Part shown: piece by piece, positions 9,746 through 10,078 of the stretch
How positions within the stretch are numbered: position 1 is the stretch's first letter
Layout of the letters: every line of letters begins with the position of its first letter
Virus record (IMG/VR): IMGVR_UViG_2526164631_000021
Strand: one strand, 5' to 3'
DNA: 14,800 bases
Origin: a virus
Taxonomy: Duplodnaviria > Heunggongvirae > Uroviricota > Caudoviricetes
Translations under genes and position numbers: made by a program
Notes under the pieces: generated by a model
The model's database searches: none
Seen by the model: the letters and a program-made list of their open reading frames with translations, nothing else
Told to the model about the DNA's origin: nothing

Positions 9746-10078
9746 ATGCAACACATTGACAGAGAAAAAGCGCAGCGACTGATTGAGCGGATGGAAGCGC
9801 TGGCGAAAGAAGAAAATGTCAACATCCAAAAAATAGCTGAATGTGGCCAGATAGTTCTTCGTCGTGAAAAAGACCTCAAACAACTGATGTCTGGCGAAAC
9901 CAGCAAAACATGGACTTCAGGTGAGGAGACGATTTATTGCAGCTTCTGCAATAAATCCCAGTACGAAGTCACAAAGGTGATTGCTGGACCGTCTGTTTAC
10001 ATCTGCAATGAGTGCGTGGATTTGTGCAATGAAATTATCAGGAGAGAAGTGACAGACAAAAAGGGAAAAAACGCATGA
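9746..10078 (+). CDS. protein with C-terminal ClpX-type C4 zinc-binding domain (ZBD) fused to an unrelated N-terminal region
   Basis: The C-terminal ...[38 protein letters not shown] is near-identical in pattern to the N-terminal zinc-binding domain of E. coli ClpX (...[38 protein letters not shown]...) with all four Cys conserved. The N-terminal ~60 aa is charged and helical-looking. AAGGGGGA RBS. There is no AAA+ module. Confidence 0.8.

Follow-up and report, generated by a model that had tools for sequence, protein, structure and literature searches.

What might a phage gain from a protein of only 110 residues that carries a copy of ClpX's zinc-binding domain (ZBD) and no motor to go with it? 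The question is raised by a gene on the + strand of a 14.8-kb stretch of phage DNA, which we analysed as a whole and refer to as the window. An earlier note on this DNA had described the product as a stand-alone ClpX ZBD joined to a novel N-terminal region, had placed the gene at the head of a cargo operon, and had proposed a decoy, an adaptor or a regulator of the small proteins encoded downstream.

Genomic setting of the gene

The window covers the early arm of a prophage that is P88-like and belongs to the P2 family. It is 99.93% identical to a prophage adjoining pheA in E. coli FDAARGOS_1059, and phage P88 (Peduoviridae, Xuanwuvirus) matches it at 97-98% nucleotide identity over most of its length. 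It opens with the end of an IS679 element lying in the integrase gene, followed by a C-type repressor, an early operon of cox-like and other small genes, gpA, parM and parR; the ZBD gene comes after parR and is followed by five small genes, a terminator-like hairpin and, on the opposite strand, the portal and terminase genes. The interval between gpA and the portal gene is described in PMC9122126 and PMC9519451 as a variable hotspot of P2-like phages that houses tin, old and many defence systems, and the gene order of the window, together with its identity to P88, places the ZBD gene inside this gpA-gpQ hotspot. The features on which the argument draws are the following.

5508-8330 (+): gpA, replication endonuclease; bounds the P2 hotspot upstream
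8407-9366 (+): parM (StbA), plasmid-segregation actin; Pfam match
9371-9682 (+): parR, StbB-type partition adaptor; profile and database matches
9688-9711 (+): hairpin with a 10-bp stem between parR and the ZBD gene; dG -22.9 kcal/mol, z -3.6
9746-10078 (+): gene for the stand-alone ClpX-ZBD protein, 110 aa; RefSeq WP_001163780, homologue of P88 gp19, PHROG 6797
10075-11341 (+): five small, tightly packed genes of lambdoid 'ea'-region type, variable between loci (10075-10410, 10391-10585, 10587-10805 with DUF4014, 10807-11070 and 11081-11341)
11352-11374 (+): terminator-like hairpin closing the early/accessory operon; dG -14.8 kcal/mol, z -3.3
11833-12879 (-): portal gene gpQ; downstream boundary of the hotspot

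A ClpX-type zinc-binding domain without a motor

The reading frame runs from an ATG at 9746 to a TGA at 10076-10078 and is preceded by a good ribosome-binding site, the Shine-Dalgarno-like GGGGGA at 9734-9741. Its product matches PHROG 6797 over practically the full profile (residues 1-106 on positions 5-107 of 107, E 1.5e-58) and is divided as follows.

9746-9889 (+): N-terminal helical hairpin, aa 1-48 (helices 6-23 and 27-48); AF2 pLDDT 77-91
9890-9931 (+): flexible linker, aa 49-62; pLDDT about 46, length differing between clades
9932-10042 (+): ClpX-type C4 zinc-binding domain, aa 63-99 (Cys65, 68, 87 and 90); Pfam, PDB and Foldseek matches
10043-10075 (+): variable, charged C-terminal tail, aa 100-110, from family alignments

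The Pfam search and structure prediction that the earlier note had proposed both came out in its favour. Pfam PF06689 (zf-C4_ClpX) matches residues 64-99 over profile positions 2-38 of 39 (E 8.2e-18). The score of 64.5 bits lies above the gathering threshold of 27, which the homologues P0019, P0123 and D6 orf93 also pass. In a phmmer search of the PDB, residues 57-104 align to the E. coli ClpX ZBD chains 1ovx and 2ds5 (E 2e-19). An AF2 model built from a nine-sequence alignment (mean pLDDT 78) predicts two helices, a low-confidence linker and a ZBD-like unit, within which pLDDT reaches 80-90, and Foldseek superposes the modelled ZBD on 2ds5, 2ds6, 2ds7 and 2ds8 with an rmsd of 0.6-1.1 Å and a probability of 1.00.

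At the residue level, C65, C68, C87 and C90 correspond to the zinc ligands C14, C17, C36 and C39 of ClpX and are invariant in all clades. The core shares 29 of 37 residues (78%) with E. coli ClpX 12-48, and 31 of 45 over ClpX 10-54; the core differences are few and mostly conservative (L12I, G18N, H22Y, R25T, L27V, D37N and D45E). The pocket residues F16 and I46 of ClpX are kept as F67, which is invariant, and I97, which is I, V or F across the family. The C-terminal ClpX ZBD is therefore upheld, but not its description as an almost exact copy that makes up the last 40 residues, since 78% of the core is identical and the domain, residues 63-99, is followed by an 11-residue tail. The identity of the domain is secure; zinc binding, dimerisation, partner binding and a benefit to the phage are inferred.

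That the ZBD comes without the AAA+ module is likewise borne out. The ClpX equivalog models of NCBIfam score 50.2 bits (TIGR00382) and 48.7 bits (NF003745) against cut-offs of 370.75 and 359, they align at model positions 3-52 only, and the protein stops 11 residues past the ZBD. The Pfam and NCBIfam scans of the protein gave no match to an adaptor family of the SspB or RssB type. A role as an adaptor that delivers a bound partner to ClpXP would be the weaker reading, because known ClpX adaptors bear a peptide that binds the ZBD, whereas this protein carries the docking domain itself. Family alignments show no conserved degron in the C-terminal tail (aa 100-110).

An Ogr/Delta-type zinc-finger activator (PF04606) was considered as another identity and is ruled out, with no Pfam match at E <= 0.1; a separate Ogr_Delta gene adjoins the Salmonella homologue of the ZBD gene.

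The N-terminal hairpin

The N-terminal region had been called novel, and this too is confirmed: its first 60 residues have 12 matches among 1.84 billion representative proteins. The matching sequences that were read belong either to full-length relatives or to copies that are truncated or frameshifted; one weak match is to a 1212-aa protein. As far as these matches were read, the hairpin appears to be restricted to the ZBD-protein family. Foldseek searches of the PDB and BFVD gave no match to the hairpin, the ZBD part alone being matched. In the family alignment, the Salmonella clade and the L071/L072 clade have insertions of 11-12 residues in the linker that follows it.

Where helix 2 ends (residues 43-50, nt 9872-9895) stands the motif hydrophobic-x-(Q/R)-L-x-S-G, which is kept in all clades and persists despite the low N-terminal identity. 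It is loosely like the LKxh ZBD-binding consensus of RssB and SspB peptides, a short type of motif too degenerate to score.

Distribution of the family

Close copies, with at least 90% nucleotide identity, are present in 112 of 5,426 complete E. coli genomes. A sensitive blastn search of the same set with the ZBD-coding part found family members in 221 genomes, about 4%, at 128 chromosomal places and 105 on plasmids; the plasmid records among the matches listed are about 92-106 kb long. Carriers include UTI89, NU14 and STEC O145 strains, and the proportion of carriers makes the family common enough to matter for lysogen physiology. By tblastn, full-length relatives that are 48-52% identical were found in phage D6, where the gene sits among small accessory genes of the Ea22 and DUF4014 types, and in other phage records of 91-109 kb, and remoter members (36-44% overall identity) in P2-like prophages, those of Salmonella among them. 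In both E. coli and Salmonella the family is thus carried by P2-like prophages, and it also occurs in D6-like phage-plasmids. The GTDB species-representative genomes yielded no full-length relatives; the matches there are genuine betaproteobacterial clpX genes that share 'PSVYICNE'.

The ZBD also occurs bare. Pseudomonas phage PP9W2 encodes a ZBD-only protein of 65 aa, gp081 (L010 3995-4192), beside its replication genes. Klebsiella phage ST846-OXA48phi9.2 has an unannotated ZBD-only ORF on the + strand at about 4001-4210 of L011. In these lambdoid-type phages the bare ORFs adjoin a DnaB-like helicase gene or sit between cII and the replication protein, a hint that a link to replication modules may be frequent among phage ZBDs. 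A family of 136-aa proteins (P0031, P0061, P0067 and P0096) joins an N-terminal zf-C4_ClpX domain to a C-terminal HTH_23-like segment, and shows that other bacteria, too, employ the ZBD as a module in proteins other than ClpX.

Transcription and gene neighbourhood

The gap between parR and the ZBD gene measures 63 nt. The hairpin within it (9688-9711) lacks a good U-tract on the + strand and is possibly an attenuator or an mRNA-stability element. A sigma-70 promoter scan upstream of the ZBD gene detected none, and in other clades the gene likewise abuts or overlaps the gene before it. Most simply read, the ZBD gene would lie on an early/accessory transcript that ends at the hairpin 11352-11374. 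To say that it leads the cargo operon is apt as a statement of position, the gene being the first one past parR and preceding the variable small genes; no separate promoter was detected, and the gene looks like a continuation of the early operon.

In a survey of 64 related loci, the order gpA-parM-parR-ZBD was constant in the P88-like prophages. Downstream of the ZBD gene, which is kept throughout, at least five distinct gene sets were found, among them the 10075-type ORF with lambdoid small genes, sets containing XF1762, and a convergent phd-doc pair. The Salmonella loci have no same-strand gene between the ZBD gene and the portal gene, and in L007-type and D6-like loci the neighbours are entirely different. 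Because ParMR and the downstream genes vary or are missing across the surveyed loci, the ZBD gene is an autonomous module, tied to neither ParMR nor downstream cargo.

This bears directly on the proposal that the protein is a dedicated regulator, protecting or destroying the small proteins encoded immediately downstream. The gene overlaps the next ORF (10075-10410) by 4 nt (ATGA), and about 27 of the 41 P88-like loci have a homologue of this ORF behind the ZBD gene, as such a regulator would lead one to expect; the ORF is missing in about 14 of the 41, however, the corresponding neighbours differ or are absent in Salmonella, L007-type and D6-like loci, and no neighbour matches a defence-system model (PADLOC-DB v2, with no match in the eight genes between 8407 and 11341). 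The survey largely rules the proposal out, and we regard it as scarcely tenable. An NCBIfam scan of the ZBD gene and its neighbours assigned no named family.

A functional link to ParMR was also considered and is ruled out, since ZBD genes exist without ParMR beside them in Salmonella, L007, L056 and L057 and the D6-like elements; furthermore, among the entries of Table S5A of PMC9122126 that were covered, most ParM hotspots are without a ZBD (43 versus 489 mentions). The ParM/ParR (StbA/StbB) plasmid-partition pair (8407-9682) itself is an early-operon feature here, although the P2-like phage is one that integrates, and Rousset et al. (PMC9122126) put such a partition system in about a quarter of P2-like phages. 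The block gpA-parMR-ZBD-portal is also plasmid-borne, on the 129-kb pCREC455-3.

Constraint and recombination within the gene

In the ZBD core, identity to E. coli ClpX stays at 70-89% across clades and identity between clades at 65-84%, whereas the N-terminal half falls to 26-44%. Compared with the Salmonella homologue, the ZBD has a dN of 0.12 and a dS of 1.6 (omega about 0.08); in the most distant comparisons, in which synonymous sites are saturated, its dN is 0.12-0.28. The hairpin is also under purifying selection, with an omega of about 0.33 from the sole unsaturated comparison. These data show constraint on the ZBD, not mimicry as such. Identity to ClpX is no proof of mimicry, because the ZBD is a slowly evolving mini-domain in all ClpX proteins, and that each clade is nearer to ClpX than to the other clades would also be expected from independent divergence from a captured, host-like ancestor.

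Synonymous divergence differs between the two halves of the gene: when the window is compared with L007, the ZBD half has a pS of 0.19 and the N-terminal half one of 0.76, and against the D6-like L060 the corresponding values are 0.48 and 0.89. This difference indicates intragenic recombination, the halves having recombined independently, and makes the gene a mosaic. That the ZBD was captured recently from host clpX, or has undergone gene conversion with it, is ruled out by sensitive blastn with the ZBD-coding DNA, in which the chromosomal clpX was not detected; the similarity at the protein level is therefore old and maintained.

The protein could also act on something other than ClpXP, the ZBD serving as a compact, zinc-stabilised dimerisation module and the hairpin as an effector on another phage or host component. 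The fusion of ZBDs to other modules, as in the 136-aa ZBD and HTH-like proteins, would fit this possibility, as would the conserved, selected pattern of the hairpin and the tolerance of the D6-like clade for changes at the ZBD surface. We nevertheless consider it unlikely: the counterparts of the pocket residues F16 and I46 are kept, the bare phage ZBD-only proteins carry no extra module, and the hairpin has no detectable relatives and no fold class that would suggest an activity.

A putative decoy for ClpX partners

The function of the isolated domain is better understood for ClpX itself. As described in PMC5415555, the ClpX N-domain dimerises independently and is required for FtsZ, MuA and adaptors, not for recognition of the ssrA tag; PMC7804408 describes F16 and I46 as part of a hydrophobic pocket for lambda O, SspB, RssB and trigger factor, and PMC7226468 reports that an isolated ClpX ZBD, added in trans, inhibits the RssB-mediated breakdown of sigma-S by ClpXP in vitro. 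Since the pocket residues are kept, a ZBD can compete in vitro and the partners depend on the N-domain, the reading that is best supported is that the phage protein would act as a decoy, competing with ClpX for N-domain-dependent adaptors and substrates. We hold it tentatively, at somewhat less than an even chance.

The phage would, on this proposal, make a free copy of the ClpX docking domain, a zinc-bound ZBD that is probably dimeric like that of ClpX, tethered by the flexible linker to a hairpin through which it could oligomerise or make a second contact. It would be produced together with the early operon in P2-like phages and with accessory operons in D6-like phage-plasmids, and would vie with host ClpX N-domains for SspB, RssB and substrates of the lambda O, MuA and FtsZ types. 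Adaptor-dependent and N-domain-dependent proteolysis by ClpXP would be damped selectively, and direct recognition at the pore, for example of ssrA tags, would be spared. The benefit might be the stabilisation of a phage or host protein, the blunting of toxin-antitoxin systems that ClpXP triggers, or the exclusion of ClpX-dependent phages such as Mu.

Beyond the pocket residues and the in vitro competition (PMC7226468), further observations favour a decoy: the secure identity of the ZBD, the strong constraint on the ZBD half compared with the N-terminal half, a protein-level similarity to ClpX that is old and maintained, the persistence of the gene in different phage backbones and neighbourhoods, and the existence of bare ZBD-only proteins in other phages, such as PP9W2 gp081. 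Several others count against it. A pure decoy would have no need of the conserved hairpin, yet this is under purifying selection; several positions on the ZBD surface are altered in the D6-like clade (P31D, S32N, D41K and L42D); the high identity to ClpX is in part structural constraint and in part what independent divergence would produce; and full-text literature searches found no study, functional or other, of phage ZBD-only proteins. The hairpin may serve to multimerise the decoy for avidity, or to bind a second partner. In the more specific form of the proposal, a broad anti-adaptor whose hairpin-driven multimerisation would let it out-compete the three ZBD dimers of the ClpX hexamer, we see a possibility that is rather doubtful.

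The hairpin gains an obvious job if the protein instead enters ClpX. Its ZBD could form heterodimers with the N-domain of newly made ClpX protomers, which would either disable the trimer-of-dimers docking platform or graft the hairpin onto ClpXP as a new specificity element that brings in a particular target to be unfolded or degraded. With few and mostly conservative differences in the core, the surface by which ClpX self-associates is probably preserved, and the flexible linker mirrors the one between ZBD and AAA+ module in ClpX. However, the ClpX ZBD dimer is described as independently stable (PMC5415555), which implies slow exchange with pre-existing ClpX, and the independent recombination of the two halves, although it fits a modular protein, points to no target of the hairpin. 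This subunit-poisoning or hijacking mechanism strikes us as improbable.

Returning to the decoy, exclusion of superinfecting ClpX-dependent phages, such as the Mu-like transposable phages, would be a biological role for that mechanism and not a distinct mechanism. As a lysogenic-conversion or defence gene, the ZBD gene would be in fitting company, given the tin, old and defence systems reported from the hotspot (PMC9122126; PMC9519451), and recognition of MuA uses the ClpX N-domain (PMC5415555). The role is nonetheless quite unlikely: with no promoter detected upstream, an early-lytic orientation and the 63-nt gap to parR, expression in the lysogen is doubtful; the PADLOC models found nothing in the gene or its neighbours; and Rousset et al. 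2022 (PMC9122126), whose Table S5A names the arrangement 'StbA + Plasmid_stab_B + zf-C4_ClpX + hypothetical', report in the text no test of zf-C4_ClpX arrangements.

Among the proteins whose stability ClpXP governs are RpoS, SOS proteins, proteins of cell division, several antitoxins and phage proteins for replication and transposition. If the proposal is true, a copy of the ClpX docking platform would be a simple and specific viral means to reprogram this network, and the protein would represent a new class of viral modulator of regulated proteolysis in bacteria, as well as a genetic tool, ready to hand, with which adaptor-dependent and direct degradation by ClpXP could be told apart in vivo.

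Relation to known systems and prior annotation

The gene family is real, well defined and conserved, and is not a new kind of system. Family and domain annotation were already known; what is new is the decoy proposal, as a variant of host-domain mimicry and of the modulation of proteolysis. RefSeq (PGAP) names WP_001163780 "ClpX C4-type zinc finger protein", the P88 and D6 copies are misnamed "carboxylate--amine ligase", and PHROG 6797 is annotated as of unknown function.

The protein resembles ClpX in its zf-C4_ClpX domain, four Cys ligands, 78% core identity, predicted fold and F16/I46 equivalents. Unlike ClpX, it lacks the AAA+ motor, the IGF loop and ClpP docking, its ZBD is C-terminal and follows an unrelated hairpin, and it is encoded by phages and phage-plasmids. 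Small proteins that rewire proteolysis by sequestering adaptors or blocking a protease, some of them phage-encoded, include the anti-adaptors IraP, IraM and IraD, the phage inhibitors T4 PinA and T7 Gp4.5 against Lon, and lambda RexB; these have no known sequence or fold kinship with the ZBD protein, and none is known to imitate one of the protease's own domains. Closest in proposed action is the recombinant ClpX ZBD described as a competitor in PMC7226468, also a free, motorless ZBD that inhibits RssB-mediated sigma-S degradation in trans, but a laboratory fragment, whereas here a natural gene with an extra domain would act by analogy.

Among phage proteins, PP9W2 gp081 and the members of PHROG 12435 and 5259 are likewise stand-alone zf-C4_ClpX proteins from early or replication regions of temperate phages, but have no N-terminal hairpin and only 40-50% identity. 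The cargo of the P2 hotspot (tin, old and retrons; Rousset et al. 2022) occupies the same gpA-gpQ position, and the ZBD gene differs from it in that PADLOC recognises no defence system in it and in being co-oriented with, and abutting, the early operon, as a self-contained cassette would not be.

Further observations on the window and related loci

At the left end of the window, an IS66-family element (IS679, 1-1448) sits in the 3' end of the phage integrase gene, so that the integrase ORF runs into IS679 sequence; in the matching genome, pheA adjoins. Towards the right end, the gene for the terminase large subunit (12879-14630, - strand) is broken into several ORFs, and the window carries four single-base indels relative to the FDAARGOS_1059 prophage, at 13199, 13896, 14510 and 14710; these reflect either prophage decay or assembly/homopolymer errors. 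A P2 cos sequence used as a query matched nowhere within the window.

Within the five-gene set, ORFs 10075-10410 and 11081-11341 match the C-terminal and N-terminal halves, respectively, of phrog_660 (193 positions), and look like pieces of a modular Ea22-like lambdoid protein that has been split or recombined. In the early region, Rfam identifies at 4579-4776 (+) an isrK Hfq-binding sRNA (66.7 bits) and, behind it, a C4 antisense RNA (81.1 bits), the two standing close upstream of a short ORF of the 'derepression protein' type (4833-5063); this is a C4 RNA immunity module in the style of P1 and P4 within a P2-like early region.

Finally, E. coli C3 (L013 4503-5254) and four IMG/VR loci (L042-L044 and L046 6503-7266) have the convergent phd-doc pair directly behind the ZBD gene. 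In L071 (4849-5630) a divergent phd-doc pair, whose Doc is 58% identical, immediately precedes a ZBD gene that is itself divergent (36% identical). Because P1 Phd is a ClpXP substrate, a functional link between phd-doc and the ZBD gene is conceivable, but the pairing may be a coincidence of the hotspot.
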